Part shown: positions 4,024 to 63,380 of the stretch, piece after piece | How positions within the stretch are numbered: position 1 is the stretch's first letter | How the letters are laid out: each line of letters starts with the position of its first letter | Source of the DNA: an uncultured Pseudomonadales bacterium | Lineage (GTDB): Bacteria > Patescibacteriota > Microgenomatia > UBA1400 > PJMF01 | Direction: 5' to 3' | DNA length: 64,000 bases | Assembly (NCBI GenBank): GCA_964648715.1 | Contig: CAZYNM010000003.1 | Coordinates: 29,430-93,429 of the forward strand | The notes under the pieces: generated by a model | The model's input: only the letters and a program-made list of their open reading frames with translations | Database searches by the model: none | Told to the model about the DNA's origin: nothing | Position numbers and translations under genes: made by a program

Positions 4024-4685
4024 GAGAAATAAAGATTGATTCTACATGGAAAAAAATGCTGTCTAATGAATTTGACAAGCCGTATTGGCGTGAACTCACT
4101 GACTACGTACGTGCCCAGTATCAACAAGGCATGGTCTTCCCTCCTGCAAATCAGATTTTTAGAGCATTCGATCTCTGTCCATTTGACTCAGTGAAGGTCG
4201 TTATTTTGGGACAAGATCCCTACCATGGTGTGAAACAGGCGAATGGGCTGTGTTTTGCGGTTACTGATGGAGTTGCGGTACCCCCATCACTGCAAAATAT
4301 ATACAAAGAAATTCTACAAGATACTGGAGTGATCCCACTGCCTGGAGGTGATCTAACACGGTGGGCAACCCAGGGAGTGCTACTCCTTAATAGTGTACTC
4401 ACCGTAGCTGCGCACCAACCAGCTTCTCACGCAAAAAAAGGTTGGGAAGTGTTTACTGATGCTGCAATTACTGCTTTAAATGAACAGCGAGAGGGCATTG
4501 TCTATATGCTATGGGGTAAGTATGCTCAAACAAAAGGTGAACTTATCAACAGAGAAAAGAACTTGGTCCTCACTTCAGGACATCCTTCTCCCTATTCAGC
4601 ACATCTTTTTCATGGGAACCATCATTTTAGCCGCTGCAATACCTATCTATTTTCTCAGGGTAAAGACCCTATTGATTGGCAGTAA
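4020..4685 (+). CDS. ung: uracil-DNA glycosylase (family 1 UNG)
   Basis: Motifs GQDPYHG (water-activating loop), GLCFAV, LLLNSVLTV and HPSPYS are present. The start overlaps the upstream stop (ATGA). Confidence 0.9.
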   Translation: MREIKIDSTWKKMLSNEFDKPYWRELTDYVRAQYQQGMVFPPANQIFRAFDLCPFDSVKVVILGQDPYHGVKQANGLCFAVTDGVAVPPSLQNIYKEILQDTGVIPLPGGDLTRWATQGVLLLNSVLTVAAHQPASHAKKGWEVFTDAAITALNEQREGIVYMLWGKYAQTKGELINREKNLVLTSGHPSPYSAHLFHGNHHFSRCNTYLFSQGKDPIDWQ

Positions 4686-6569: not shown

Positions 6570-6573
6570 AGGA

Positions 6574-8292
6574 CTAGTATACCCTTTTCTCGGTTTTTGT
6601 CAGTATGTGTAGCCAGTAGATAATAAGTGCCGCCGTGAGGAAAGAAAACACTGAAATATACGATGCGAGTGCACGGACTTTAGTTTGCGTATACACAACA
6701 GAAATTTGGTGTGAACCTGCCGGGACTTGATAGGTGATAAGTCCACGGTAGTTCATATCTTGAAACTCAATTGGTATCTCTGTCCCATCCACAAATACTT
6801 TCCAGCCAGGAAAGTAAAATGTATAGTCTATAAGTCGAGCCGGTTGTGCGGCATTGATAGTGTACGTACGCCGTGCATTTTTAAGTGAAGTTGGTAGGAG
6901 AATCGCTTCACCAGAAAGTACCGCAGCTTGTTGAGTTTTGGGTGGGTACTTTTCACTATTATCACTCCAGATGGTATTGAGGTTTTGTGAGTGCAAATTA
7001 CTTATAGTATGGAAATACTGAGATTCGGGAAATGCAGCGTAATTTTTGCCATAGAGCTGTGGAATACGAATGATGCAGAGTGTGCTCAGGAGTACAACAA
7101 GAAGCGTTTTCCTTGATGAAAAGAAGCGTTGAACAAGAACAGCTGTAAGAACCGCCACGGCCACCTGCACAACAATAAGGAAGCGCCAGGGGTATTGCAC
7201 CAAACTTAAACCAGGAATCAGACTATAAAGCGGTTTGCTTAACGGCAGTGTCATGTACAGTGCTACAACCGCAATGCCCCACCATATACCATGCAGTTTC
7301 TGTATTCCTGATTCTTTTTTTTGCTTTTTAAAAAACAATAAAGCTGTTGCAATCAGTAATAGCACGAGTTCTGGAATACCAACTTTTAACAAATTGCCAC
7401 GTGGCCCTGGATGAGTAAGGTAATAGTACCAGTGGGGATCAAAAAAATTTTTCCAACTTAAAAATACATCGCTTGATAAAGCTTGTGCTGGTTGTACCCC
7501 TTGGTAAAAGTACTTCATTTCAATAACTAAAGGAATGAGGTAATAGGCAGCACCTGCTATGCCAAATACTACGCCACTAGCCGTATAGACAAGTGCTTGT
7601 ATATCCTTGAATGGATACAGGCGAGCTGCTGCATAGACTGCCGCAGTCAGTCCTAAAATGAGCAGGAGCATGGGATGGCTCAGTGCGATGCATAGGGTGC
7701 CTATGCCAATCCACAGGGAACCACGAAGATATTTACCTCGCGTGATTTGATCAATTCCGTAGAGGAGAAGCGGAAAAAAACTGGCACTTAGCAGCTCAGG
7801 GAGTGCGCCACGTATGTACATATTAATAATCTTGTAAGGAAAGAATGTGGCCACTATGCTGGCTGCAAGTGCAGCATCAGTATCCACCCATGTCCGTACA
7901 TATACATACAAGATTATGCTGCCCAAAAGAATGGTAGCGGTAAGGACAAGGTTGTAGGAAGTTGTAACCGACAATCCACTCATAATGAGGAGGGCGCCAG
8001 CATAGGCAGGTAGCTGATGTGCAAATAAGGGCAGTGGCAAGCCAAACTGTGCAAAACCGTTTGACCATCGCACTGGAAATTCACCGTCTTTCAGTGCTTG
8101 CGCGAATTGCGCCATGGTAGTCATGTGAATGTGGCCGTCAAAGGTGATTGGGCGACCACTATGAAAGAACAAGTCAACGACAGTTATAAGTGATACAATG
8201 ACACTACAGATCAGAGCTGCTATGTCTTTTCGTTTCATGTCATCAGTATACACTGTTTCTATTCTGGTGAGCGGAGTGGCTCTCTGTGCCAC
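6574..8292 (-). CDS. large polytopic membrane protein, GT-C-like; paralog of the 10207-11973 product
   Basis: Shares the motif GEFPVRWSNGFAQFGLPLPLF (compare GQFPPRWAPNLSDGFGYPVFNYTYPLPY) and the C-terminal domain FPGWKVFVDG...YRGLITYQVPAGSHQISV (compare FPGWHIDIDG...YKGLLQIQVPTGSHVITV). The true start is probably the internal Met (MKRKDIAAL, ~8238). Confidence 0.5.
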   Translation of the reverse strand: MAQRATPLTRIETVYTDDMKRKDIAALICSVIVSLITVVDLFFHSGRPITFDGHIHMTTMAQFAQALKDGEFPVRWSNGFAQFGLPLPLFAHQLPAYAGALLIMSGLSVTTSYNLVLTATILLGSIILYVYVRTWVDTDAALAASIVATFFPYKIINMYIRGALPELLSASFFPLLLYGIDQITRGKYLRGSLWIGIGTLCIALSHPMLLLILGLTAAVYAAARLYPFKDIQALVYTASGVVFGIAGAAYYLIPLVIEMKYFYQGVQPAQALSSDVFLSWKNFFDPHWYYYLTHPGPRGNLLKVGIPELVLLLIATALLFFKKQKKESGIQKLHGIWWGIAVVALYMTLPLSKPLYSLIPGLSLVQYPWRFLIVVQVAVAVLTAVLVQRFFSSRKTLLVVLLSTLCIIRIPQLYGKNYAAFPESQYFHTISNLHSQNLNTIWSDNSEKYPPKTQQAAVLSGEAILLPTSLKNARRTYTINAAQPARLIDYTFYFPGWKVFVDGTEIPIEFQDMNYRGLITYQVPAGSHQISVVYTQTKVRALASYISVFSFLTAALIIYWLHILTKTEKRVY

Positions 8293-8803
8293 ACTCCTGC
8301 TGCAACCATCTGTGATAAGTTGGTGGAATCCATGGTACCGTCATACCCTTATACAACACTTTGTTGATAAGATCAGTAGCACACAGTCGCTTGATGCTCA
8401 AGAGCTTTGGCTTTTTCGTGAACGATTAAGCCCAGGAAGCATGCGGCCCAATACTGAGGCTGTGCAGATGTTTCAAACATATCGTATCGTGGCTGTTGAA
8501 CCAGTTAAAGACACCCTGCTCATGACGTTTGCAAGCAAAGCTATGACAAGCACCGATAGTCTCACAAAAAATCAACATGCATTGGATGAAATAGAGAAAA
8601 AGTTGCCGCAAGGCACGGTCATTCGTGCCAAGACTTCACAGCTTCTTCTTGCTGAGTTGCCAGATACCACTATTGTGCTGTCAGCTTTACTGCCTATCAG
8701 TGAACTGAAACGAGCAAATGGTTTTTTTGATTATCTACCGAGTGAAGAACAACAACTACAAGGGCAGGTGTGGTTGCACCAAAGTACCCTAGTAAAGGAA
8801 TGA
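8237..8803 (+). CDS. hypothetical protein with N-terminal hydrophobic segment (start uncertain)
   Basis: ORF 8198-8803 has an internal Met followed by SSVYTVSILVSGVALCATLLL (signal/TM-like). It overlaps a divergent neighbour, so the start is uncertain. Confidence 0.3.
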   Translation: MSSVYTVSILVSGVALCATLLLQPSVISWWNPWYRHTLIQHFVDKISSTQSLDAQELWLFRERLSPGSMRPNTEAVQMFQTYRIVAVEPVKDTLLMTFASKAMTSTDSLTKNQHALDEIEKKLPQGTVIRAKTSQLLLAELPDTTIVLSALLPISELKRANGFFDYLPSEEQQLQGQVWLHQSTLVKE

Positions 8804-10257
8804 TGACACTCCGGATACCGTCAAAATGGACAATGATTCTTGCTGCTCTCTGGTTGGGCTGTCTTATTGTTACCCGCTTCTATAACCTTGATCATACTGC
8901 GCGCTTTACTCAAGATGAATCAAGTGATTTGTCGCGTATGTATCAGTATTATCGTGAAAAGAGAATTACCTTAGTAGGTCCTATATCCAATGATAATGGT
9001 AAGGTTTTTAGCTCTTTGACGTACTACATGCTTATGCCGTTTGCATACGCCGGTGGCTTCACTCCTGTCAGCCCGGTCTATGGAATGGCGGTGTATGGTT
9101 GTCTAACTGCTTTGTGTATTTTGGGGATTGTGTATGAGCTTCGACGTGCGTGGCTTTACCCTGCTGCTTTGTTACTACTTATTTGGTACCCACTTTTGGA
9201 GATGAGCCGATGGGCCTGGAATCCTCATTTCGTTGCACTATGGGCAAGTCTGGGCATGTACGCCTGGCTGCAAAAAAAACGGTACCCAGTTGTGGCTCGT
9301 GCAGTAGCCGGATTGAGTTTTGGCTTGATGTTCCATCATCATTATCTTTCGGTGTTGGCAACAGGTCCATTGGTCCTCTACTTTTTGTATGCGGATCTTA
9401 AGCACAAAAAATATAGGGAAGCATCTGCGCTTTTTACAGCATATATGCTTCCTTATATGGTATTTGTCTTGTTTGATCTGCGACATCCACCAGGACTTTT
9501 CTTTGGAAGATATCTTTTGAGTGGCAACACTCCCGATGTTCAAAAGACAACAAGCGCAGCACAGTACCTGAGTAACCTTATGCGAAATTATTGGGTTATG
9601 GTTGATACGTTTGTAAAGCCATTTATATTGAAAACTTGTGTGGCCATTTTGTTACCACTGCTCATGTACTTTGATCTACGAAGTCGTAAAGTTTCACTCA
9701 ATATATGGTACCTACCTCTTTGGCTGGTAGTACTGGTGGGTGTAATACTTGTTGATTTTCAAGTGCGTTATGTTTATCCTGCGGTAGTTTTCGCCTTTGT
9801 ATGGCTCATTACCCCACGCAAGTCACTGAAAGCACAGCTCGTTGCTCTGAGTATCCTGGGCTGTATTTTTGTTGGTTCACTTTTCTCTTTTTGGAAGCAA
9901 CTCACTCGCACTGCTGTACCGCCAGATATGTACTCCTTTACAATACTTAGCACTTATATACGTGAAACCATCAAATCACAGCAAGTGAAAAATCCCAATA
10001 TAACGGTTGCAAGCAGCCCTGACTCTGCTCCTCTCGGAGAAAAATATCGTGATTACATTGGCATGGATGGTACACAATTTCGTGCCTCAAGTGAGTATGA
10101 TTTATCTGAGAATTTATTTATTATCACCACCACGCCTTACGAATCAGTGCGAGAAAAGGATAAAAGTTTTGCACTCCTTGCTTTCAAAAAGGCAAGCTTA
10201 AAGGGTTCATTTGAGGTTCCTAATTCTGAGTGGAAAGTGTATTGGATTGGGTATTAG
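8770..10257 (+). CDS. PMT/ArnT-like GT-C glycosyltransferase (GT39/GT83-like)
   Basis: N-terminus has TM1 then RFYNLDHTARFTQDESSDL (the R...DE loop-1 signature of ArnT/PMT), followed by ~11 TM segments and a soluble C-terminal domain. Confidence 0.6.
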   Translation: MVAPKYPSKGMMTLRIPSKWTMILAALWLGCLIVTRFYNLDHTARFTQDESSDLSRMYQYYREKRITLVGPISNDNGKVFSSLTYYMLMPFAYAGGFTPVSPVYGMAVYGCLTALCILGIVYELRRAWLYPAALLLLIWYPLLEMSRWAWNPHFVALWASLGMYAWLQKKRYPVVARAVAGLSFGLMFHHHYLSVLATGPLVLYFLYADLKHKKYREASALFTAYMLPYMVFVLFDLRHPPGLFFGRYLLSGNTPDVQKTTSAAQYLSNLMRNYWVMVDTFVKPFILKTCVAILLPLLMYFDLRSRKVSLNIWYLPLWLVVLVGVILVDFQVRYVYPAVVFAFVWLITPRKSLKAQLVALSILGCIFVGSLFSFWKQLTRTAVPPDMYSFTILSTYIRETIKSQQVKNPNITVASSPDSAPLGEKYRDYIGMDGTQFRASSEYDLSENLFIITTTPYESVREKDKSFALLAFKKASLKGSFEVPNSEWKVYWIGY

Positions 10258-11973
10258 GTGACGGGTTGTGTGTATTGCTACGCAACACAACCATACTAGC
10301 GCAAGCAATGTGCTCACCTCTCCCATTCTTCGTACTGGTGTTGTTCCCGTGAAAGAAACGGTTATAACGTGTGAACCAGTAGGTACTTGTATCTGGAGCA
10401 GGCCTTTGTAAGTGGAACTATAGAGACCCGGCTCAACTGTTTTACCATCTATATCTATGTGCCAACCAGGAAAAGCTAATCGCTTGTGAATAACAACTGT
10501 TGGTGACGGAAAAGTAACATGATATACCATCCGTGTCCCCGTAAGTTCCGTAAACGCGGGGTTTTCTCTAGTGATACTACTCCATGTGCTGGCTGGTGTA
10601 TTTAGTGTGGCCTCAGCCTGATAAATGATAGGATCTGACAGTGGATAACTGCGGAGCGCACCCACCGGTCTGTGTTCATCATAACTTGATCCCAGTATGA
10701 CACTCTCGTACCACTCGTAGTCATTACGGCTAAAACTACTTCGCGGGAATCCATAGGTGCTAGTTGTGACAACTACCCCAACTGCAAGTGATGCCATGAG
10801 TAGTAGCCTTAGTCTTGGTCTTGCTGGTGATGCAGTAAGAAAAAGTGCTGCAATGAAACTTAGTGCATTGAGCACCCACAGCAACCTCCAAGGAAACTGA
10901 ATAATCTGTAACAAACTACTGTGATCCCACAGTGGCTGAGATCTAAGTGTCATAAGAAAGAATGTTATAGCACCAGTAGTTGCGACAATTAGTAGGACCC
11001 ATTTTGTTTGGGCTCGCTTGCTACGTATGAGTACATACCCCACCAGAACGATGGTGCTGCAGATACTTATTCCTAGCTGAACAACGTCTTCAAAGTAAGG
11101 GCTCTTAAGGATGGTCCGGGTGATGTCAATAAATGTCCAAGCTGGTAACAGATGTCCCTTGTATTGGAGAAGTGAAGAACTTTCTTTATAGGCAATGAAG
11201 TGTACCTCACCCACTGCGGGGAAAAGATAGAAGCCGCTGAGCATCACAGCTACAAGGCAACAGTAGAACATGTATGCCGTAGCCGATACCCAATATGTTC
11301 TGGGCAGTCGCCTATCAATCACAAGAATACACAGCCAAGCTAACAACACTATTCCCAATGCTAGAAGTGATGGCACATGGGAGAGAATTGCTGCAGCTCC
11401 AATAACACCCAGAAGCGTACTGGTGAGAATGCGCATGTGAAGTAAACGATAGTATTTAATGAAGTAATAACAAGACAGAAGCGCAGCTGGAACAAGCGAA
11501 CTTAAAAAGATTTCACCAAGTGCTCCTCTCCAGTACACTTGCAAAAACGTGTAGGGATTTGCGAGGTATGCACATGCAATGAGAACTGCACACCATGTTT
11601 GAGGAACAAACTCGCGTGCGAGCTGAAATGCAGCCAGTGCCGCAAAAATACAGGCTGCAAGGACAGACAAGAGCAAACTTGCCTGAATACTCAACCCGAG
11701 CGTGTGAAGAAGGCTGCTCGTTATATATGGAAGTGGATAGGTGTAATTGAAAACAGGATACCCAAAACCGTCGCTGAGGTTTGGAGCCCATCTTGGAGGA
11801 AATTGACCTTGCTGAAGTGCAAGGTAGTAGTTTGCTGCTCGTGCCGCATGCAGTTCGTAATCATCTGACTCAAAGAGTTGACCAAGCAACAAAAAACGAA
11901 ATAAGCAAATCACAATGAGGACAACAGACACATAGGGGAAAAGCGAGCGACCTAGGGTCCAAAGGTTTTTCAT
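10207..11973 (-). CDS. large GT-C-like polytopic membrane protein with C-terminal beta-sandwich-like domain (paralog of 6574-8292)
   Basis: Has the FESDDYELH acidic motif after TM1, shares the motifs listed for 6574-8292, and overlaps the upstream gene stop by ATGA (operon). Confidence 0.5.
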   Translation of the reverse strand: MKNLWTLGRSLFPYVSVVLIVICLFRFLLLGQLFESDDYELHAARAANYYLALQQGQFPPRWAPNLSDGFGYPVFNYTYPLPYITSSLLHTLGLSIQASLLLSVLAACIFAALAAFQLAREFVPQTWCAVLIACAYLANPYTFLQVYWRGALGEIFLSSLVPAALLSCYYFIKYYRLLHMRILTSTLLGVIGAAAILSHVPSLLALGIVLLAWLCILVIDRRLPRTYWVSATAYMFYCCLVAVMLSGFYLFPAVGEVHFIAYKESSSLLQYKGHLLPAWTFIDITRTILKSPYFEDVVQLGISICSTIVLVGYVLIRSKRAQTKWVLLIVATTGAITFFLMTLRSQPLWDHSSLLQIIQFPWRLLWVLNALSFIAALFLTASPARPRLRLLLMASLAVGVVVTTSTYGFPRSSFSRNDYEWYESVILGSSYDEHRPVGALRSYPLSDPIIYQAEATLNTPASTWSSITRENPAFTELTGTRMVYHVTFPSPTVVIHKRLAFPGWHIDIDGKTVEPGLYSSTYKGLLQIQVPTGSHVITVSFTGTTPVRRMGEVSTLLALVWLCCVAIHTTRHLIPNPIHFPLRIRNLK

Positions 11974-13610
11974 GGAGTGTGTGGCGCGTACTTAAGTAGT
12001 TCATACACAGCTGTTCCATCGTCATAGGTAATGGTCTCAACAACTGCCAGCGATGAGGCAACTGCCGAGGATCGTCGGCACTCAGTCTCTGCAATATAGA
12101 GTGTAGTCTCAGAAAGTGTCCCAAAGTCACAGCTCCCATGCGTAAATGCATATTTACCTATATGAGTTTCTTCCTGCATCCTCTCTAGTGGGTGTTGTTG
12201 TAATTCAGAAAGTGGTAGCGCGCCAGCAAGTGAAAAGTATGCATACAGTGGACGCAAATCATTGACCACTCGTACGCTTTGATAGCTGGTGCTGAGGCGT
12301 ACAACAGCTTCGGCAATCTTGGTGTATGGGGTGTTCCGGTACCATGGCTGGTATACTTTTTGTTGTACTTCCAGTTGCAGTAAAAAGTAGCCTACTTGCC
12401 ACAAAATGAACGGAACAAAAACGATAGAGACCAGTGTCTGCCAACGTTGACGTGTAGAAAGAATTTTTTCCCAGCCAAGGGTGATAAAGTATGCCAATGC
12501 TAGACAGAGGGGAACAGTTCTAATAATGCTTGGTGTTTCTTGATATGTGAGTGCTGCAGGGATTGGTGCAAGAAGCGCCACTGCAAGTGCAAACAAAGCA
12601 GGGGTGTCTTTTCTTCGTGCCGCCACAAAGAGACCAATGAGTAAAAGTGGGAGCTCAAATACATACAATAATCCATGAAAAGGAATTACATATCGTTTGG
12701 GTTCTCCCCCTTTGAAGAACAAGAAATCTGGCGAAAAGTAGGAAAGGTATTCTCGTATAACACTCAAGCCATATATAGCAGGCTTGTTGTAAAAGGTCCG
12801 TATGACTGAGTGTGAAGCAAGTGGTGTTGCACTAAAGGTCTGCTCTGTAATGCGGATTTGAGGCTCTTTGTTTCCTAGTATGCCAACAGCAGCGAGTCGT
12901 GAACTGCTTTCTTGCACCAGCAAAGAAAGGACAATAATTCCAACGATACTTACTAAGTACATACTTGCTTTATGAAGCGGAAGGCGCTTTTTGAGCCACA
13001 GCCAAGCAATGCAGCTCGCAAACAACACAGGTAAAAATACTTTGGCAGAATGGTAACTATATAGGGCACCAAAAGTGAGAATAAACCACAGAAAAAAATG
13101 TAATGGACTATATTTGCGTACCAAGCTGAGAAAAAAGTAGATTGCCCATACACTCAGCGATAGTGACAATATTACTTCTTGTGTTGCTCTGCTCAACATA
13201 ATGTGCCACGGCGAGCAAGCAAGTACCGCCACAATCAACACTCCAACACGTTCTTGTCCTTCTCTTTTACAGAGAAGATAGCAGCCATACATACTTAACA
13301 GACCAAGCAACACAGCAGGTAGACGAGCAGCAGTCGGTGTAACTCCAAGTGCAAGCACAAAGGGAATCTGCAAGTATGAGTAGAGAGCTGGCTTTGGGTC
13401 GATCAGAGAATGCAGGCTTAATGGCAGAAATCGGCCATCTTCATCACGTGCCGTAGTTGCAAGTGATTGTGCATTCAGTAAAAAAGAAACCTCATCTGCA
13501 TGCATGCCTTGGGGAGTGGTTCCTAAATGAAAGAGTCGAAGAACTGCTGCAATGATAAAGAACACAGCAAGCATTAGACTTGTGCCAGAAATGCGTGGTG
13601 TCTTTTTCAT
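11970..13610 (-). CDS. ArnT/PMT-family GT-C glycosyltransferase (undecaprenyl/dolichyl-phosphate-sugar-dependent transferase-like)
   Basis: N-terminal block LAVFFIIAAVLRLFHLGTTPQGMHADEVSF is the classic GT39/GT83 loop-1 signature. It has ~12 TM segments and a soluble C-terminal domain. Confidence 0.7.
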   Translation of the reverse strand: MKKTPRISGTSLMLAVFFIIAAVLRLFHLGTTPQGMHADEVSFLLNAQSLATTARDEDGRFLPLSLHSLIDPKPALYSYLQIPFVLALGVTPTAARLPAVLLGLLSMYGCYLLCKREGQERVGVLIVAVLACSPWHIMLSRATQEVILSLSLSVWAIYFFLSLVRKYSPLHFFLWFILTFGALYSYHSAKVFLPVLFASCIAWLWLKKRLPLHKASMYLVSIVGIIVLSLLVQESSSRLAAVGILGNKEPQIRITEQTFSATPLASHSVIRTFYNKPAIYGLSVIREYLSYFSPDFLFFKGGEPKRYVIPFHGLLYVFELPLLLIGLFVAARRKDTPALFALAVALLAPIPAALTYQETPSIIRTVPLCLALAYFITLGWEKILSTRQRWQTLVSIVFVPFILWQVGYFLLQLEVQQKVYQPWYRNTPYTKIAEAVVRLSTSYQSVRVVNDLRPLYAYFSLAGALPLSELQQHPLERMQEETHIGKYAFTHGSCDFGTLSETTLYIAETECRRSSAVASSLAVVETITYDDGTAVYELLKYAPHTP

Positions 13611-25631: not shown

Positions 25632-25686
25632 AAAAATCCCAGGGGATGATAGGAATAGTACGGATACTGTTCCTCCTGGGATTTTT
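25632..25686 (-). terminator. rho-independent terminator downstream of the 25703-26893 gene
   Basis: 12-bp stem AAAAATCCCAGG/CCTGGGATTTTT with a nested inner stem AGGAA/TTCCT, and a T-run on the minus strand. Confidence 0.6.
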
Positions 25687-25702: not shown

Positions 25703-26893
25703 CTACAATGGATTTCCGTGATTTTGAATCAAAATATCTGATTCATCATCAGGAGCATCTGGCTCTGGAGACGCAGTGCTTGGTCCCACGGCTGTGCTGA
25801 GGGTATAGCCCACCAACATCCAGCCAGAGGCGTATGCTGACAATGCAACTAGCTCTGGGGCAGCCACCAAAATGATAATGGACACCCCAATAACGATTGC
25901 AACGAAGGTGATGATAGTCATGACTTCTTCACCCGTTGGCATCCGCACACGTGCGTGAAATGAACGGCCAGCAGGGCTTGGGGCCAGGCTATTTAGTTCA
26001 TTCTCGGTTGCGATATTCTTCGCAATTGCGAGTGGCCAAATAGAGCCAATTGGTACCCACTTGCCATTTGCCCCTGGACATTCAGCGAATGCCAGCTGCA
26101 CGTACACCGTCGCTGTTGTGTCTGTCCCCCAATTTGTGATGGTTCCCAGTGCAATCTCCCCATACGGGGTGAACCTGTCCTTCATCTGGCGGCAGTGCTC
26201 CCACAAGAAGATGGGATCTCCAGGGATTCCTGGCGAACTGTACATGACCTGACTTTGATGCACGGGCCAGCCAAAGTTTGGCCCCTTTTTTTTCATCAAC
26301 GCAGAGATCCGCATGTTACGCAGGATCTCTTCTAAACTTTGCCCCGGCGGAATGGCCATTTGGTGCGTGATGTTGGCTTTGCCAGAGTCAGTTTCATCTT
26401 GATAGGAACCAAAGGTCAATGAGCTTTTAAATGGTACGTCCACTGTCCTTGTGTAGATGTTTGATTCGTATGCCTTATACGAATCATCAGATCCATTGGT
26501 GACGAGTGAGACTGCGCCTGGCTCACTTTGGAACGTTACAATCCCACTAATGTAATTAACAGGGATTGCAATGCACTCCTGTGTGGGTGCGGCTGGCACT
26601 GTCATGGCTGCTGAACTGAGGTCGTCCGTTGGGACTTCCCAGATGCAATAGTTGCCGCCATTATTCATTGTGTACACAAAATCAAGTTTGGGAGGCTCTG
26701 TTCTCCATTCGTTCCCTACGATTGGCAGGTACAGCTGGTTGCTTGCTGAGATATTTTTCGGTTCTTCTGCTGGCGGTTCACCGGCTGCTGCAGATATGCC
26801 CACTATTGTGGGCGGTGATCTTGCCGCTGAAGGTGATTGGCCGTGGCAGGCACATTTGTCTACAAACATTGGCAACTGTGGTGGAGTTCTCAT
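25703..26893 (-). CDS. hypothetical C-terminally membrane-anchored protein (G+C-rich locus)
   Basis: 396-aa ORF with no competing ORF over most of its length, a single C-terminal TM (IITFVAIVIGVSIIILVAAP) and an acidic tail. The N-terminal region (with LYLPIVGNEW) overlaps the divergent protease ORF, so the start is uncertain (internal Mets at ~26668 and ~26605). Confidence 0.4.
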   Translation of the reverse strand: MRTPPQLPMFVDKCACHGQSPSAARSPPTIVGISAAAGEPPAEEPKNISASNQLYLPIVGNEWRTEPPKLDFVYTMNNGGNYCIWEVPTDDLSSAAMTVPAAPTQECIAIPVNYISGIVTFQSEPGAVSLVTNGSDDSYKAYESNIYTRTVDVPFKSSLTFGSYQDETDSGKANITHQMAIPPGQSLEEILRNMRISALMKKKGPNFGWPVHQSQVMYSSPGIPGDPIFLWEHCRQMKDRFTPYGEIALGTITNWGTDTTATVYVQLAFAECPGANGKWVPIGSIWPLAIAKNIATENELNSLAPSPAGRSFHARVRMPTGEEVMTIITFVAIVIGVSIIILVAAPELVALSAYASGWMLVGYTLSTAVGPSTASPEPDAPDDESDILIQNHGNPL

Positions 26894-27872
26894 CCACCGT
26901 CAATGGGTGGTCACGGCAGCACATTGCTTAGACCAAGGAGTAAGCACGGTACATGTCACGTTGGGTGAACTTGATCGTTCCACAGTCAGTGGACATGAGC
27001 AGGTATTCACCAGTACCGTGTTTAAGTACCACACCTTGTTCACCACAAGTACATATGACTACGACATTGGTCTAGTTTTTCTGTCAGAGCCAGCAACACT
27101 CAACGAATGGGTGCAAACAATTCCACTCGTTGCTGAGGATGAAGCTCACCTGGAGGATGAAGGCACCATAGCCTGGACAACAGGCTGGGGTGCTACACAA
27201 GAAGGTGGTTGGCTCGTCAACGAACTAAGAGAAGTAGACGTTCCTGTCTACAACCACGCAGATTGTCAGAACTCTTATCACGATGTGACAGAGCGGCAAA
27301 TCTGCGCAGGTTACGCTCAAGGTCTTAAAGACAGTTGTGGTGGTGACAGCGGCGGACCACTCGTGGGTCAAAATGATTCTGGAGCTTGGAAGCTCCTGGG
27401 TTTAACGAGCTACGGACGTGGCTGCGCTAGACCCAATCTGCCAGGAGTCTATACCCGCGTTTCCCAGTTTAGAGACTGGATAGGTGTCAATACCAGTGTT
27501 GTTCCTCGATTGATATCACCAATGTGGCAAGATGTGAGTATCCCTCAAAAGGTGCCGTCTCCGGTTATGTTTGAGATCACTAATACAAGCGGGTTGACTG
27601 CAAGTGTCAGTATCACCCTTGAGTTAACAAACCTGGACTTAGTAACTGGCACAACAGAACTGCAATTTTTACCTATCACTACAATGACAGAGTTCACTAC
27701 AACATATGTCTGGACTGGAGAAATCTTTGAAAGCCTGGTAACAACCCAGAAATTCTACTTGATTGATGAAAAAAATGAAGGGACTGGCAGGGTCTGTGTG
27801 TTGGAGTACTGCCTTAAGTTTACAATCGCACCTCGCTACGAAACCTATCTCCCATTAATTTCCTCGCAATAA
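26652..27872 (+). CDS. trypsin-like serine peptidase (S1 family) with ~130-aa C-terminal extension
   Basis: IVGG start of the mature domain, catalytic triad contexts WVVTAAHC (His), DIGLVFL (Asp) and GDSGGPLV (Ser), and disulfide Cys pairs. The start codon is uncertain (Met directly before PTIVGG at ~26796 is an alternative). The C-terminus ends ...TYLPLISSQ. Confidence 0.8.
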   Translation: MPPLFIVYTKSSLGGSVLHSFPTIGRYSWLLAEIFFGSSAGGSPAAADMPTIVGGDLAAEGDWPWQAHLSTNIGNCGGVLIHRQWVVTAAHCLDQGVSTVHVTLGELDRSTVSGHEQVFTSTVFKYHTLFTTSTYDYDIGLVFLSEPATLNEWVQTIPLVAEDEAHLEDEGTIAWTTGWGATQEGGWLVNELREVDVPVYNHADCQNSYHDVTERQICAGYAQGLKDSCGGDSGGPLVGQNDSGAWKLLGLTSYGRGCARPNLPGVYTRVSQFRDWIGVNTSVVPRLISPMWQDVSIPQKVPSPVMFEITNTSGLTASVSITLELTNLDLVTGTTELQFLPITTMTEFTTTYVWTGEIFESLVTTQKFYLIDEKNEGTGRVCVLEYCLKFTIAPRYETYLPLISSQ

Positions 27873-27886
27873 CTTCCCTCTGATTG

Positions 27887-27913
27887 GCTGCACCGCGCTC
27901 TGCGCGGTGCAGC
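27887..27913 (+). terminator. strong GC hairpin immediately after the protease stop (putative terminator)
   Basis: Perfect 12-bp stem GCTGCACCGCGC-tct-GCGCGGTGCAGC. The downstream tract is not T-rich, so it may be rho-dependent or structural. Confidence 0.45.
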
Positions 27914-27923
27914 TACCCTTCTC

Positions 27924-27951
27924 TTGACACGGCAAGTACCATCTTTATAAT
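27924..27951 (+). promoter_or_regulatory. consensus sigma70-type promoter for the 28020 gene
   Basis: TTGACA (27924-27929), a 16-nt spacer, then TATAAT (27946-27951). Confidence 0.55.
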
Positions 27952-28019
27952 GCACATCTCTTGCGCAGCACACTCAAATATCTTGAGTAGGTGCGCGCAA
28001 GAAAACAAAGATCGTTCAC

Positions 28020-29246
28020 ATGTTGTTTGTCTGGAAACTAAAAATGTTTCGCTTGTTTAAATCCATTAAACCCATCATGTTCACTGTCGTGTTACTGATT
28101 TTTGGCGTCTTTGCGCATGCATTCGCGCAAACTGGCCCAAACGCAAGTAATACGACCTACCTGCCGCTCGTTAGCGCGCAGGTAGAGCCCACCCCTTTAC
28201 CTTCACCAACACCAGATGGCATCAGCTTTCGACCTGCCTGGCAAGATGTTTCATCAACGGATCGTGCTGCTCCTCAAGCAGCGAATGGTCCCTGTGGAAG
28301 CGATCTCCCACAAGAAACAGAGGCAGCGGGCACAAACGGTGGTTGTCTTCTTCCCGGCAACTACCCTATCTTGAACATGGTAAAAAACAACCAGGTAACT
28401 GGTAATTTCTTGTCTGTTCAAAATGGTAGTGGAAGTGATAATCAGCAGGTCTGGAATATGGAAAACTGGTGGCAAGGTGCCCAAACTTGGGATCACCCTG
28501 ACTTTCTGCAAATCGAGAGCTGGAAATATTTGGAGAGTGGTGCCCCAAATATGGCACAAGGTACTGTCCATGTCCATGAACATGACTACCTGCCAACAGT
28601 TGCTGCAGCTGGTGTACTAGAGCTTCCTGTCGTTCCAGCGGCTCAGCAGCGTTTTGTCACAGACATGGTGGACTACCTTTCCAAGTATGTCGTGACAACA
28701 CAGTTGGAGGCCTCAGCACTGCAACCATTCTATGCGCCGGTTGTTCCATTGCTCTACAAAACCTTCAGTTTTAACTGTGGTTTAGATGCAATTGATACAT
28801 CACCAATCAGAGTAATTGGACCGACACTGCTCCCAACAGTAGCTGGAGCAAGCTTTATGGTGAAGGTCCAATTTCTAGGATACACTGATGATTTTCATTC
28901 AATGTCGTCTTGCATGGGAGAGTATCAGTATCTAAAAGTAGCAGATCTCATGTTTCGGCAAGAATTTGAGCCATTCAGGGTAGCAATGAGAGCCCAGGGA
29001 TACACAGCCTGGGAAGATGTACCCAAATGGAAGCTCCCCCAGCCCGTCCCTATCCCGCCTAACGTGGTGTATTATGCCAGTTGGGTGGCAGAAAAAGGCG
29101 GATCAACAATCTGGACAGTAGAGAAGTTTGTGGACGGCGTACTATCAACCGCCTCCACGTTCTTTATCGTGCCGGATGAAGCCTGGGAATGTTTTGTTCA
29201 AGCAACTTATAAGACCTGTAAGTTGCACAACGTTCCTAATCGATGA
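28020..29246 (+). CDS. secreted hypothetical protein (G+C-rich locus)
   Basis: Signal peptide ...VVLLIFGVFAHAFAQT, then NASNTTYLPLVSAQ and a Pro/Thr-rich linker. 408 aa. The start may be the internal Met at 28044. Confidence 0.55.
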   Translation: MLFVWKLKMFRLFKSIKPIMFTVVLLIFGVFAHAFAQTGPNASNTTYLPLVSAQVEPTPLPSPTPDGISFRPAWQDVSSTDRAAPQAANGPCGSDLPQETEAAGTNGGCLLPGNYPILNMVKNNQVTGNFLSVQNGSGSDNQQVWNMENWWQGAQTWDHPDFLQIESWKYLESGAPNMAQGTVHVHEHDYLPTVAAAGVLELPVVPAAQQRFVTDMVDYLSKYVVTTQLEASALQPFYAPVVPLLYKTFSFNCGLDAIDTSPIRVIGPTLLPTVAGASFMVKVQFLGYTDDFHSMSSCMGEYQYLKVADLMFRQEFEPFRVAMRAQGYTAWEDVPKWKLPQPVPIPPNVVYYASWVAEKGGSTIWTVEKFVDGVLSTASTFFIVPDEAWECFVQATYKTCKLHNVPNR

Positions 29247-44786: not shown

Positions 44787-45923
44787 ATGGCGCAGGAGCT
44801 AAGTCGGCGTACTTTTCTTGAACTGAGTGCACAAGTGAGTTTCGGTACTCTTATTGCTTTGGTGCGCACTGGCTTGGAAGGTGTCCGCACTGCTCACGCA
44901 CTTACAAAGCAAGAACGCTCTTATCAACCTATTGCAGAAAAAGCTCTCGAACTGCAGCAACAACCTGCTGCGCTGGAGTATGCCAGAAACTTATATGATA
45001 CGCTCCAGCTGGATACCAGTATCCCTATTGGTTGGATTGATGTTACTCCTGTGTGTCATACACTTCCCTGTTTTACCGGCACATCTGGACAAATACTTGA
45101 TATGCAGCGAAGCCAGTCTTTTAGTGATGGTTCAGTGACCACAGAAGCTGCAGAACATACAACCTGGGCGCTCCAATTTGCAGTACAAGATTGTGATAAT
45201 AGTTCATCTTTTATCAAGCCAGGGCTTTCTCAGGCAGAATGGACGAACATTATTTTAGCCATTGATGAAACTGTATCCATTGAAATGTACCCACAAATGA
45301 TTACCAAACTTGTCGATGATGGTGTGGGAGTCATTGGGAGTATGCCTACCTGGACAGAGCTGGATCATGGTGTTTCTGAGGAAACTGTTGCAGCAGTTGC
45401 AGATGCTTACGCCTATGCACAAGCACATAATGTCCTTATCATTATTCCCTCTGGAAACAGAGGAATTGACTTGGCTTCTCCCCCCGATGGAGTTAAGCGC
45501 ATACTGCATGAACTGAAACAGCAGTTCTCCAACGTCCTTTGCGCGGGTGGTGTGAGTGATGAACTTGCTATTCCTTTGTGGCAGGCCAATGGATTGCGTG
45601 GGTCTAATTATGGATTGGGTTACATTACCTGTGTCTCTCCCATCATTAATAGACACGTGCCAGCTCGTGGGCCACAAGTAGTAAGTGGGACTACGTTTGC
45701 AACGGGAGACATGGTGAGCTGCATTCAGGCCGTGCAAGCTCGTATCGGGAGAATGCCGGATGGTTCTCTCCCCGATCATAGAGTGGTAACTGCGTGCTTG
45801 ACTGAAACTACTCAATACTTGGGTAACCCAGCGTACTTTGGCAATGGGCTTCTGCAGATGCATAACGCACTTAGGGTTGCAGGTCAGGCACGGACCCTGC
45901 TCAGAAAAAGGTGGGAACACTGA
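44787..45923 (+). CDS. subtilase-like (S8-fold) protein with Tat-type signal; the catalytic Ser position appears to be Thr
   Basis: N-terminus SRRTFLELSAQVSFGTLIA (twin-arginine motif). Motif order VDDGVG (Asp), DHGVS (His), SGNRG (oxyanion Asn) and GTTFATG in place of GTSMA. Confidence 0.4.
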   Translation: MAQELSRRTFLELSAQVSFGTLIALVRTGLEGVRTAHALTKQERSYQPIAEKALELQQQPAALEYARNLYDTLQLDTSIPIGWIDVTPVCHTLPCFTGTSGQILDMQRSQSFSDGSVTTEAAEHTTWALQFAVQDCDNSSSFIKPGLSQAEWTNIILAIDETVSIEMYPQMITKLVDDGVGVIGSMPTWTELDHGVSEETVAAVADAYAYAQAHNVLIIIPSGNRGIDLASPPDGVKRILHELKQQFSNVLCAGGVSDELAIPLWQANGLRGSNYGLGYITCVSPIINRHVPARGPQVVSGTTFATGDMVSCIQAVQARIGRMPDGSLPDHRVVTACLTETTQYLGNPAYFGNGLLQMHNALRVAGQARTLLRKRWEH

Positions 45924-50300: not shown

Positions 50301-52250
50301 GTGAGGAATCTCATGAATAAGTCTAGTCTCAGATATCTCTTGATCGCAGCGACTCTGGTTCTGCTGATCGCAGTTTCAACTATTGTTGCGCTTGCGCAAA
50401 CAACTCACTCAACCTTTGGCGCGAGCATGATGCCAAGAGCTTTGAGTGAGACAACGTACCAGAACGTGCTGGCCCTGAGCCGCGATGTGAAGCATATCAG
50501 CTCTACTACTGTGCATATCACCTGGAGCAACAACCAAACCGCTGATACAAGCTTCAGCCCAACTGTTGCGTCTGGAATTGAATATATGTACAAGGAAGTC
50601 CCCGCAGGCGTTACATCTGCCACTGTAACCATTGTTGAGGGCAACTACAGCGTGACATTCACGCCGGAGCTGCCCAAAAATAGTATCTTCAGCGTCAAGA
50701 CCTTCCGCAGCGGGAACGGGGTTCAATACCCGTTCCAGAATGTGTTGTATCTCTACCGAGATGTGCTGATTAAATCCAGCGTGGCGATCACCGTCGAAAC
50801 TACCGTTGGTTCACCAATCAATGAAAGTTTTAGTGACGCTACACCCAGATACCAGGCACAGGAAAAGTACGTTGTGTTACCAAATGCAGCAAACGCCATC
50901 ACTGTGACCATCACCGAAAACGGCACAGAACTTGTCTACCCGTTGACGGTTGATCCAATCATCCCAACGCCAACCCCTACCGAGACACCCGTGAGCGGTG
51001 TCTCATGTCAGTATTGGCAAGGTCGCCCAGACCTACGGGTTGGATGGATCTACGGCTACATCACAAACGGATTATCTGATGCACAAGTTGTGGCAAAATT
51101 AGGTGACACCATTGTGGGCTGTACAACTACAGAGGCTGGTGGACTGATGAAGTTCACGGCGCTGCATCGTTTATACAGCACCCAAACAGAAGGGACATAC
51201 ACCTTCTGGGTGAATGGTATTGAGTACATTTCTGAGCCTGCAGTCAGTGTTGAGTCAATGAATGGCGATAGCTATGAAATCTCGCTCTCTCCTAAAGATG
51301 AGCCAACGCCAACACTCATTGCGACACAGCCAACGAACACACCTGTACCAACACCAACTGAAGGGGCAACCGCTACGGATACCCCCGCAGCAACAGATAC
51401 CCCGGCAGCAACTCCGACAGAAGCAGCAACCGCGACCAACACTCCGCAACCTACCAACACACCGGTGAGTGATCCCACGGCTACTGCCACTGTGCCCTCA
51501 ACCGGCTGGATTGAAGTTCAGCCTGCGACGATCAGCCGCACCGTGGAGTACGTGAGTGAGACACAAGTCTTTACCTGGAAAGTGAAAAATGTCAGCGGTA
51601 AGGCCACCAGCTTTACCGCAATCATGTTGCAGCCAGTTGGACGTGGTTGCTTCAGCAGCCCTTCATTCCAGTCATCGCTTGCCGCGGGAGAAACGAAAGT
51701 TTTCTCAACCACCGTGTCGAGCACCTGCCTGGGTGAGGGTGTGCACAATCGGTCATACCAGTTCATTGAGCAGGTTCCGATCAGCGCGACGCCGCGCAAC
51801 GCAAACCTGCCCATCGTGGTCACCGTGCTGCCCAATCCTTGGGAAGTGTCAATCACGACCCCGGGGGCCATCAGCGCTACGATGCCCGCCACCTTCACCA
51901 TGACCGTGAAGAACGTTGGCGATCGTGTCCGCTTGGGCGCTGCCCAGGTGTACGTCGATGCATCGCCTTTCATGATCACGCCAACCGTGCAGATCAATTC
52001 AGGCGAAGTGCATGCGAGCCCGTTTGGCCAAAACGTCACGCGCTACCTCTGGGCTTTCGAAATTCAGCCTGGCGAAACCGCAGCCTTTACCAGCGGCGCC
52101 CCCACCAAAGACGTCACGTTGTTTACGCTGTACCCAGACACCTGGGGCTGGCAACAACCTGACCTTCAGTCTGGCGCAGCCTCTCTAGCCGTGTTCCCGC
52201 AAGGCCAAAGCGGTGTCAAGGTGATCTACCTGCCCGTTATCGTAAAGTAA
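50301..52250 (+). CDS. large secreted hypothetical protein with Thr/Pro-rich linker (G+C-rich locus)
   Basis: Signal peptide ...LLIAVSTIVALAQT. 649 aa with an internal PTPTLIATQPTNTPVPTPTEGATATDTPAATDTPAATPTEAATATNTPQPTNTP linker. The C-terminus ends ...KVIYLPVIVK. Antisense ORFs in this region are G+C artefacts. Confidence 0.6.
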   Translation: MRNLMNKSSLRYLLIAATLVLLIAVSTIVALAQTTHSTFGASMMPRALSETTYQNVLALSRDVKHISSTTVHITWSNNQTADTSFSPTVASGIEYMYKEVPAGVTSATVTIVEGNYSVTFTPELPKNSIFSVKTFRSGNGVQYPFQNVLYLYRDVLIKSSVAITVETTVGSPINESFSDATPRYQAQEKYVVLPNAANAITVTITENGTELVYPLTVDPIIPTPTPTETPVSGVSCQYWQGRPDLRVGWIYGYITNGLSDAQVVAKLGDTIVGCTTTEAGGLMKFTALHRLYSTQTEGTYTFWVNGIEYISEPAVSVESMNGDSYEISLSPKDEPTPTLIATQPTNTPVPTPTEGATATDTPAATDTPAATPTEAATATNTPQPTNTPVSDPTATATVPSTGWIEVQPATISRTVEYVSETQVFTWKVKNVSGKATSFTAIMLQPVGRGCFSSPSFQSSLAAGETKVFSTTVSSTCLGEGVHNRSYQFIEQVPISATPRNANLPIVVTVLPNPWEVSITTPGAISATMPATFTMTVKNVGDRVRLGAAQVYVDASPFMITPTVQINSGEVHASPFGQNVTRYLWAFEIQPGETAAFTSGAPTKDVTLFTLYPDTWGWQQPDLQSGAASLAVFPQGQSGVKVIYLPVIVK

Positions 52251-62264: not shown

Positions 62265-63380
62265 ATGAAGCGCAAATTCTTTGCGATTCCAGCGTTTGTG
62301 TTGTTTCTCATGCTTGTGACGGCCGTTACGGCTTTCGCGCAAGAAACGCCAATTACGTCAACAGTGGCAATCACAGTTGACGTGCAGAAGCCTTCCGTCG
62401 AGGTGAGATATACGCATGAGTATAGCTTTCCGGTTACCATCACGAACACCGGGGAGTTTACTGCCAGCGTCTCTGGCGAAGTTTTGCTGTACTACGCGCA
62501 CGTCACTGACATCACCACGACTGTGCCAATCACGGCCAACTATGCCTTCACGCCGACTGCTTTCCGTAGCTCGGCAGCGTTTACGCTGACCGAACCGGTA
62601 GCGCCAGGTGAGGTCGTTACTTTGACCGTCATCTGTGCCCAGGATCAAACCCCCGGACCTGTGTGGGCTGATATTGAAATCACTGCGACGCCGCTGGTGA
62701 CTGATGTTTTAGAGACCTCACTATTCAGCACAATCGCGTGGGATGCGCAAACGCCCTATGACTTTTCGCTGACCATGAACATCAGCCCTACCAACATTTT
62801 GAGCGGCGGAGCCGCAAATCTTATGGTATCGCTACAATCAAACGGCGATATCACTGAGACAAGAACAATCATTGGGCTCAAGGGGTTTGGTGTTACCGAT
62901 TACTTTTTACTTGGTGATGCAGCTGGCCCAGTGGTGCGCGTGGCGTTTCTCACTGCTGCGCAGGCTGCTGCAGAAAACGCAAAGCTTGATAAGCTCAAAG
63001 CGTCTTGGAAGGCGCGCAAGGAGCACTACATCTCCCACATGGCGGCGGCAATGATTGCACATCCAGAATTTGGTAGCATTGTGGCCTCGCAGGTTTACAC
63101 TGACCCGATTTTCGTCACCTTTGCCGAAGGGGATCCAATTATCTTTTGGAACCCTGAGGAAGCGGGCGAGTTTGTGCTATCTTTTGTGCTGATTCACGAT
63201 GGAGATGCAGACCCTGCCATCTTCGGCTCGATCACGGGGCCCTATTTCACCAATTTGCCTCCCGGCGAGTTGTGGAAGTATGAATGGGATGGGGACAATG
63301 TTATTCGCCTCCTCCCGGATCGCGATTTCAGCATTGTGGCGGCTATCCTACAAGTATTCATGCCGCTCATCCAAAAATAA
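62265..63380 (+). CDS. secreted hypothetical protein (G+C-rich locus)
   Basis: Signal peptide ...FLMLVTAVTAFAQET. 371 aa. The C-terminus ends ...QVFMPLIQK. Confidence 0.55.
   Translation: MKRKFFAIPAFVLFLMLVTAVTAFAQETPITSTVAITVDVQKPSVEVRYTHEYSFPVTITNTGEFTASVSGEVLLYYAHVTDITTTVPITANYAFTPTAFRSSAAFTLTEPVAPGEVVTLTVICAQDQTPGPVWADIEITATPLVTDVLETSLFSTIAWDAQTPYDFSLTMNISPTNILSGGAANLMVSLQSNGDITETRTIIGLKGFGVTDYFLLGDAAGPVVRVAFLTAAQAAAENAKLDKLKASWKARKEHYISHMAAAMIAHPEFGSIVASQVYTDPIFVTFAEGDPIIFWNPEEAGEFVLSFVLIHDGDADPAIFGSITGPYFTNLPPGELWKYEWDGDNVIRLLPDRDFSIVAAILQVFMPLIQK

Follow-up and report, generated by a model that had tools for sequence, protein, structure and literature searches.

Apparently diverged YLP-box peptides at the ends of exported proteins of an uncultured bacterium, a probable surface-retention tag

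The closest described counterpart of the element analyzed here is the YLP-box, a terminal peptide of 8-10 residues with the consensus hydrophobic-[Y/F]-L-P-[L/V/M/I]-[V/I]-x-[R/K/Q]. Two NCBIfam models represent it, NF050076.1 (sort_motif_YLP, 11 positions, cut-off 15 bits) and NF053834.1 (ultrashort_CTERM, 10 positions, cut-off 10 bits), which share the description 'YLP-box putative sorting motif-containing protein'. In a 64,000-nucleotide stretch of contig CAZYNM010000003.1 (hereafter, the window), five open reading frames (ORFs), among them that of an S1 family protease, encode a similar peptide (hereafter, the tag). A preliminary description of this DNA, made from the sequence alone, presented the five motif-bearing termini as a possible shared processing, sorting or attachment tag of secreted proteins with a placement pattern that was not recognized from known systems. 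The ORFs and the termini are as described there, and the proposed role matches the label given by the NCBIfam curators; the pattern itself, however, is not new, given that two models exist.

The window peptides appear to be diverged YLP-boxes, that is, copies of a putative sorting motif already modeled by the NCBI curators, because the aligned homologs of the 371-amino-acid (aa) window protein pass the model cut-offs and two of the window copies score just below them. An exhaustive HMMER search places the 371-aa protein in a small family with four distant members (26-42% identity), all of which are tagged in the same alignment columns (DYLPMILK, IFLPLIAR, VYLPLVVR and ELLPLVAR); the tail of one of these (P0246) scores 20.0 and 16.6 bits with the two models, and that of another (P0245) scores 12.8 bits with NF053834. 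Against the 15-bit cut-off of NF050076, the 20-aa tail of the window protease scores 12.7 bits and the N-terminal tag fragment of the window 12.9 bits. Related tails score 12.8-20 bits on NF050076 and NF053834, several of them past the cut-offs, and Chloroflexota-type tails score 12.9-16.9 bits. The models surfaced only when tails of 20-37 residues were scanned at E-values up to 10, weak matches being dropped by the HMMER filters, so that it is a false negative that no tag model was detected when the five window proteins and 38 tagged metagenome proteins were scanned at full length with Pfam and NCBIfam.

The window copies share with those covered by the two models the core, the extreme-terminal position and the kinds of carrier, and differ in ending with ...SSQ, ...VK and ...QK instead of ...xR and in that one of them is N-terminal. 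The core [Y/F]-L-P-hydrophobic-[V/I] is present in all five copies, with M replacing L in one; two copies end with K and two with Q, and the copy in the minus-strand ORF has no trailing basic residue. In three copies, the stop codon is only 2-3 residues away, and one copy lies nine residues past a predicted signal-peptidase site (Table 1). Four of the five copies originally listed stand; the copy in the minus-strand ORF is uncertain, as it lies opposite the 5' part of the protease ORF, on the other strand, and is not preceded by a signal peptide. The window copies are all slightly diverged (K/Q rather than R), and comprise three clear ones at C-termini, one that comes just after a signal peptide and a doubtful one. 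The sources differ as well: the named sources of known YLP-boxes are Chloroflexota, whereas the window organism is not recognizably so, the best named relative of its SecA being from Candidatus Collierbacteria, with 50% identity, followed by many phyla at about 46%.

Table 1. Tag copies, carrier genes and adjacent regulatory elements in the window
Feature	Position	Strand	Remarks
ORF, 396 codons	25703..26893	-	C-terminal transmembrane segment; own terminator hairpin at 25632-25686; first ~30-80 codons antisense to the protease ORF
S1 protease ORF	26652..27872	+	PF00089 Trypsin at aa 52-277 (~nt 26805-27482), then a 120-aa C-terminal extension
YLPIV within the minus-strand ORF (QLYLPIVGNEW)	26717..26731	-	Doubtful N-terminal tag, no signal peptide ahead
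C-terminal tag YLPLISSQ	27846..27869	+	End of the S1 protease, ...ETYLPLISSQ, stop codon 27870-27872; read codon by codon
Terminator-like hairpin, 14 pairs	27885..27915	+	3' of the protease gene, parts it from the next transcription unit
Sigma-70 promoter TTGACA-16-TATAAT	27924-27951	+	12/12 consensus; in front of the 408-aa gene, directly after the hairpin
Secreted protein, 408 aa (400 aa if counted from the annotated start)	28020..29246	+	Signal peptide, then ...AHAFAQTGPNASNTTYLPLVSAQ
N-terminal tag YLPLVSAQ	28158..28181	+	9 residues past the predicted signal-peptidase site between AFA and QT; Pro/Thr-rich linker next
Secreted protein, 649 aa	50301..52250	+	Signal peptide, beta-rich domains, Pro/Thr linkers; G+C content at third codon positions (GC3) 0.58
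C-terminal tag YLPVIVK	52227..52247	+	End of the 649-aa protein, ...VIYLPVIVK
Secreted protein, 371 aa	62265..63380	+	Signal peptide, tandem Ig-like beta-sandwich (low-confidence model); GC3 0.58
C-terminal tag FMPLIQK	63357..63377	+	End of the 371-aa protein, ...VFMPLIQK

The terminal peptide is real and far from random. The strict form of the motif, [YF][LM]P[LIV][IV], has eight matches in the six-frame translation of the window, of which five are in the flagged ORFs and three in non-coding frames of 40-76 codons, with none in the other real genes. For the 49 gene products of the window (19,281 aa), 0.31 matches are expected anywhere and 0.003 in the last eight residues, compared with five and three observed, and the probability of three or more C-terminal copies arising by chance is about 5e-9. 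Among 20,000 sets of per-protein shuffles, none contained five or more matches and only 66 contained even one C-terminal match, which supports the shared terminal tag suggested originally and not a coincidence. In a control set drawn from 80 loci of other genomes (3,803 ORFs, each 120 aa or longer), the strict motif is C-terminal only once. The two adjacent tags, TYLPLISSQ and TYLPLVSAQ, use a different codon at every comparable position, and therefore, their likeness has been selected at the peptide level and does not stem from repetition of the DNA.

The same tag recurs in other genomes on many kinds of exported proteins. A homolog search with the window protease yielded at least 36 bacterial S1 proteases that end with hydrophobic-[F/Y]-L-P-[V/L/M/I]-[V/I]-x-[R/K/Q/N]; in 32 of 36, exactly two residues follow the pentapeptide, regardless of whether the tag comes after a folded module or after a bare TPTPTP linker, and the named sources are Caldilineaceae and Chloroflexota metagenome-assembled genomes. 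Non-protease neighbors on the same contigs are tagged too, such as a CarboxypepD_reg protein (...VYLPLIKR) and a Big_5 protein (...VFLPLVAR). Metagenome contigs were also scanned at the DNA level for the tag, back-translated and extended by a stop codon; 42 of the 120 matches listed were found at the ends of ORFs that are 150-1,675 codons long or run off the contig, compared with none of the 33 matches of a similar pattern on viral contigs ending a real gene (Fisher P 1e-5). Most of the complete carriers have Sec signal peptides, and the Pfam domains found in carriers are of types usual for surface proteins, including beta-helix/PMP, PKD, TIG, cohesin, SdrD-B, NHL, DUF11 and clostripain. The number of residues beyond the motif varies in relatives from zero to eight (2-8 beyond the pentapeptide). 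The S1 protease homologs P0103, P0106, P0107, P0108, P0112, P0115 and P0120 instead share a conserved tail, ...AAPE[AE]R[LV]W..P....QK, that might be a second terminal motif, and a small secreted protein of 161 aa encoded in locus L243 (12935-13420) ends with ...DADIFLFLPHMRN, which may be another variant of the tag, one that has His in the fourth position.

The best evidence for the role of the tag is its alternation with retention devices. Among 38 carriers, six match the NCBIfam choice-of-anchor Q domain and two match choice-of-anchor Z; such domains, as the name implies, are taken to precede alternative C-terminal anchors. In the choice-of-anchor Q family, the core lies within the last 17 residues in 68 of the best 120 homologs, with a single internal occurrence in 90,826 aa. 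Other homologs end with SLH domains (P0219 and P0238), with LPSTG accompanied by a sortase domain (P0194) or with a transmembrane segment and a basic tail (five proteins). The tag, then, is positionally fixed, evolves under peptide-level selection, is attached to many unrelated types of extracellular domains, and occupies the slot that in homologs is taken by SLH, by LPXTG with a sortase or by a transmembrane-plus-basic tail.

The tag is not confined to the C-terminus. Three proteins carry it immediately after the signal peptide, namely the 408-aa window protein, its homolog in locus L082 (NAVYLPIISNS) and an unrelated protein in locus L224, where the peptide (AGPTQSIYLPLVIKGG) is followed by a long Thr/Pro linker and scores past both NCBIfam cut-offs. 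The 408-aa protein and the syntenic L082 protein are 24% identical (E 1e-20) and carry the N-terminal tag at the same place. The 408-aa protein contains no known domain according to whole-protein Pfam and NCBIfam scans, and a homolog search of 5.8 billion proteins matched only the query itself. All three N-tagged genes (window 28020, L082 2207-3283 and L224 2156-2959) are located directly downstream of a C-tagged gene, on the same strand, with the caveat that the presence of a C-tagged gene was the ground on which each locus was selected, so that sampling bias is possible. Pro/Thr-rich linkers adjoin the tags, and the tag is usually found at the far end of the tether, at either terminus. In one metagenomic protease of 635 aa (P0052), IYLPLITTK is internal, between the C-terminal module and a CAP/SCP domain, an arrangement that looks as if two neighboring tagged genes had fused.

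Taken together, these observations make it probable that the diverged YLP-box at the ends of Sec-exported proteins serves as a handle, borne on a flexible tether, for surface retention or docking, with the S1 protease as one of its cargoes. Under this scenario, the carrier would be exported via Sec and its signal peptide removed, after which the tag would hold the protein at the cell surface by docking to, or being processed by, a putative envelope component. A further-reaching version, offered tentatively and with some doubt, is that the YLP-box might be a position-independent docking peptide read by a putative envelope receptor or ligase, a means of holding proteins at the surface independently of sortases and exosortases that the Chloroflexota would share with a poorly sampled lineage, possibly a Patescibacteria-like one. 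Given that the N-tagged genes sit downstream of C-tagged ones and the tag of P0052 is internal, tags might also pair with one another and so join the products of neighboring genes.

Several observations weigh against the surface-retention interpretation. When the 304 ORFs of 50 tagged loci were clustered all against all, there was no recurrent untagged neighbor that could be a cognate enzyme or receptor, and four 20-kb Chloroflexota neighborhoods gave no recurrent partner family. All of the window copies remain below the NCBIfam cut-offs, and for two C-terminal tags (tails of 20-25 aa with YLPVIVK and FMPLIQK), as well as the minus-strand copy, there was no NCBIfam match. A signal peptide is missing from two of the five carriers in the window, and in the AlphaFold2 models the per-residue confidence (pLDDT) is below 50 at both tag regions modeled, those of the protease and the 371-aa protein. 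Three of the 38 carriers (L124, L210 and L237) are cytoplasmic TetR regulators that end with ...IVDDVFLPLVQR; therefore, the pentapeptide alone is not diagnostic, and a simple regular expression would wrongly collect such look-alikes. The word 'sorting' is itself the inference of the curators: searches of the literature with the peptide, the concept and the term 'YLP-box' found no experiment or paper on the motif, the literal peptide retrieving only frog temporins (FLPLI...) and unrelated matches.

Among the alternatives, the one that survives best, while still unlikely, is that the tag directs its carriers through a second, dedicated export step, across a sheath, an S-layer or an outer membrane-like layer, following the logic of the C-terminal domain of the type IX secretion system. 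The fixed terminal position on Sec-exported proteins is compatible with such a signal, and the carriers share domain types (choice-of-anchor Q/Z, beta-helix, PKD and CarboxypepD_reg) with users of the type IX or PEP-CTERM systems in other phyla. However, homologs replace the tag with retention devices and not with secretion domains, the tag also functions from the N-terminus, on a tether, and its eight residues are far below the size of any known folded secretion domain.

The preliminary description had further suggested that the tag could be cut by the co-encoded protease. This protease is a bona fide member of the S1 family (PF00089, E 5e-62, 210 bits). In the alignment with 34 bacterial homologs (35 sequences), the catalytic residues H43, D90 and S185 are invariant, as is D179 in the S1 pocket, at the position of chymotrypsin Asp189; Asp in the S1 pocket confers trypsin-like cleavage after Arg or Lys. 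In the AlphaFold2 model, the trypsin fold has a pLDDT above 90 and the C-terminal extension is below 50. A specificity for Arg/Lys, implied by the invariant Asp, would fit a scheme in which cleavage after the conserved R/K that lies two residues past the pentapeptide, and is followed by 0-6 variable residues, matures the cargo and produces uniform ends, and S1 proteases are, indeed, frequent carriers of the tag. This scheme is, nevertheless, very unlikely: the proteases are themselves tagged, which marks them as cargo; most of the tagged genes sampled have no S1 protease nearby; the window protease, lacking a signal peptide, might not even be exported; and one of the three C-terminal tags in the window ends with ...SSQ, while the N-terminal tags of the window and of L082 have no Arg/Lys past the motif. 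Because tagged S1 proteases are common (at least 36) and most tagged genes have none in the vicinity, the S1 protease is best seen as cargo and not as the dedicated processing enzyme.

The window protease has no recognizable signal peptide, whereas each of the 34 aligned bacterial homologs begins with a leader resembling one. Its true start is uncertain, the ATG at 26796 (MPTIVGG) being the likely one; homology with the L082 ortholog begins at PTIVGG, and the sequence upstream of it is the antisense of the 396-codon minus-strand ORF. The two ORFs, 25703-26893 (-) and 26652-27872 (+), are arranged head to head with an overlap of ~240 nucleotides (26652-26893); there is no promoter-like site between them, nor room for one, and neither has a recognizable signal peptide. 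In L082, the minus-strand ORF is absent, SecA directly faces the protease gene, and the protease ortholog has a typical signal peptide. The simplest reading would be that a single deletion, or else an assembly error, removed the divergent promoter region along with both 5' ends coding for signal peptides; a search for inverted repeats at 26.6-26.9 kb that would explain the arrangement found nothing convincing. The protease gene and the 408-aa gene are separate transcription units, with the hairpin and the promoter between them.

It also appears highly improbable that the motif is no signal at all and simply represents the last beta-strand of a homologous C-terminal domain shared by the carriers. 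In one group of proteases, the tag does follow a conserved module (...NRLVVAIT..YALGAPNR..FLPMVLR), and the C-terminal parts of the window carriers are beta-rich, with 'ITNTG'-like strands. However, other proteases carry the tag right after a low-complexity linker (TPTPTPETP...VFLPVVMQ), the tag follows dozens of unrelated domains, it is also N-terminal and, in P0052, located between two domains, and pairs of carriers have no other similarity, with only the tag columns conserved (alignment A1). Finally, chance recurrence of a common hydrophobic pentapeptide, which its presence in the three non-coding frames of the window and at the ends of the TetR proteins might suggest, is effectively refuted by the ORF, viral-contig, choice-of-anchor Q family and shuffle controls, along with the very low probability of the C-terminal copies and the conservation of the tag across homologs with 28-49% identity.

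The tagged genes stand out by their composition. GC3 is 0.45-0.58 in the five flagged genes, compared with 0.38 +/- 0.04 in the other 44 genes of the window, so that the reported G+C shift is real and manifests at synonymous third codon positions. In L243, the tagged gene that is syntenic with 62265-63380 (10001-10915, next to the run GT-GH57-DUF4153-GH15-BadF-142aa-PGA_cap-HAD) has a GC3 of 0.76, and the gene for the small secreted protein at 12935-13420 has 0.71, against 0.31-0.42 in their neighbors; in L082, there is no GC3 contrast between tagged genes and neighbors. Odd GC3 at a conserved position might reflect either repeated replacement at a fixed site or gene-specific codon bias.

The proposal that the whole set was acquired horizontally is only weakly borne out. 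Apart from GC3, the point in its favor is the comparison with L001, the nearest distant relative (SecA 64% identical), in which the seryl-tRNA synthetase (SerRS) gene lies 27 bp from SecA with no insert, so that, compared with the L001 lineage, the window has gained the block at 25.5-29.3 kb by insertion. However, L082 has the protease and the homolog of the 408-aa protein between SecA and SerRS, and with the 371-aa gene syntenic in L243, two of the three loci are syntenic in L082 or L243, so that any acquisition is old and not recent. Between the window and L243 or L082, flanking proteins are 59-87% identical, compared with 42-49% for the tagged proteins and 29% for the N-tagged one. Judging from these comparisons, the tagged genes appear to be old residents, fast-evolving surface genes within a conserved frame.

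Signal peptides are found on the products of genes 28020, 50301 and 62265 and are missing from the protease and the product of the 25703 ORF; Pfam identifies no domain common to the carriers. In a fold search, the AlphaFold2 model of the 371-aa protein produced only generic matches to tandem Ig-like adhesins (TM-scores 0.2-0.3). Three soluble proteins in the window have a clear signal-peptidase I type signal, and all three are tagged. The noted likeness of the signal-peptide ends (AFAQ and ALAQ) holds but is not a special feature, A-x-A being the ordinary signal-peptidase I site. A 378-aa protein encoded at 44787-45923 has a twin-arginine-like start (MAQELSRRTFLE...), no Pfam match and no YLP-box. 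The window also encodes a split transketolase, GH57, GH15, LDH and a number of membrane glycosyltransferases of the GT-C type, a repertoire that, as a guess, might fit an organism that is Patescibacteria-like or related to the Chloroflexota; Rfam and tRNA scans detected two tRNAs only and no taxonomic marker. The large polytopic membrane proteins of the GT-C type form a run at 4647-13610 (GT87-like, PTPS_related, PMT_2 and two without a Pfam match) that is possibly machinery for envelope or protein glycosylation; the tags adjoin Pro/Thr-rich linkers.

Taken alone, the window provides a modest result, namely diverged copies of a motif that the curators already know; what reads the tag is the question worth pursuing. 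Among the Chloroflexota, abundant and for the most part uncultured groups (Anaerolineae, Caldilineaceae and Promineofilaceae) appear to use the YLP-box as the main tag at the ends of their exported proteins, as does the window lineage, and as whole-protein annotation misses it, the surface proteomes of these organisms are under-annotated. The mechanism is narrowed by the N-terminal use of the tag, by its alternation with SLH, LPXTG and transmembrane anchors, and by the persistence of fast-evolving carriers of odd composition at conserved positions, all three of which also offer leads to a putative partner. A sortase gene was sighted once, 8 kb from a tagged gene (L240 1191-2318), as was an exosortase (EpsH) gene with a VIT-domain gene, 7 kb off (L241 20043-22763). 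Because sortase and exosortase genes are thus present on tagged contigs, these Chloroflexota run several anchoring systems side by side.

Compared with known systems, the tag resembles the peptides read by PDZ domains and tail-specific proteases (Prc/CtpA and DegS) in being a short C-terminal peptide on exported proteins. These readers recognize a free, usually hydrophobic last residue, whereas the tag ends with R/K/Q/N, is followed by zero to eight extra residues and is also found at the N-terminus; PDZ-type recognition was rejected because of the nature of the last residue, the variable trailing residues and the N-terminal copies. Three other candidates were discarded as well: O-glycosylation of Tyr, as Phe dominates at that position; isopeptide ligation of the 'SpyTag-like' kind, as Arg dominates over Lys; and a lipobox, as there is no Cys. 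SLH domains replace the tag in the homologs P0219 and P0238, and dockerins, like the tag, sit on a linker at either end of the cargo. The SLH domain (about 45 aa, usually in triplicate) and the dockerin (about 60-70 aa) are, however, folded modules with known ligands, in contrast to the 8-10 residues of the tag, which have no known partner.

Seven criteria have been listed for small C-terminal sorting domains (Haft, bioRxiv 10.1101/2023.06.07.544157). The tag shows five of these features, which it has in common with the tripartite signals (LPXTG/sortase, PEP-CTERM/exosortase, PGF-CTERM/archaeosortase, GlyGly-CTERM/rhombosortase and MYXO-CTERM/myxosortase): it is located close to the C-terminus, has three or more invariant signature residues and recurs on several proteins of a genome, which have signal peptides and are otherwise unrelated. 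The other two, a transmembrane helix following the motif and a cluster of Arg residues, are missing. The tag also occupies the same slot as the tripartite signals behind the choice-of-anchor domains. The differences are in line with the initial distinction from LPXTG, PEP-CTERM and GlyGly-CTERM, made on the ground that no transmembrane segment follows the tag. In the tripartite signals, the motif is followed by a membrane-spanning segment and 2-5 clustered basic residues, whereas only 2-3 residues come after the pentapeptide of the tag in window proteins (2-8 in relatives), and the tag contains a single R/K at most and can also be N-terminal. With no transmembrane helix, a single basic residue and N-terminal use, intramembrane or membrane-tethered cleavage of the kind found in the sortase and exosortase systems is, therefore, not possible.

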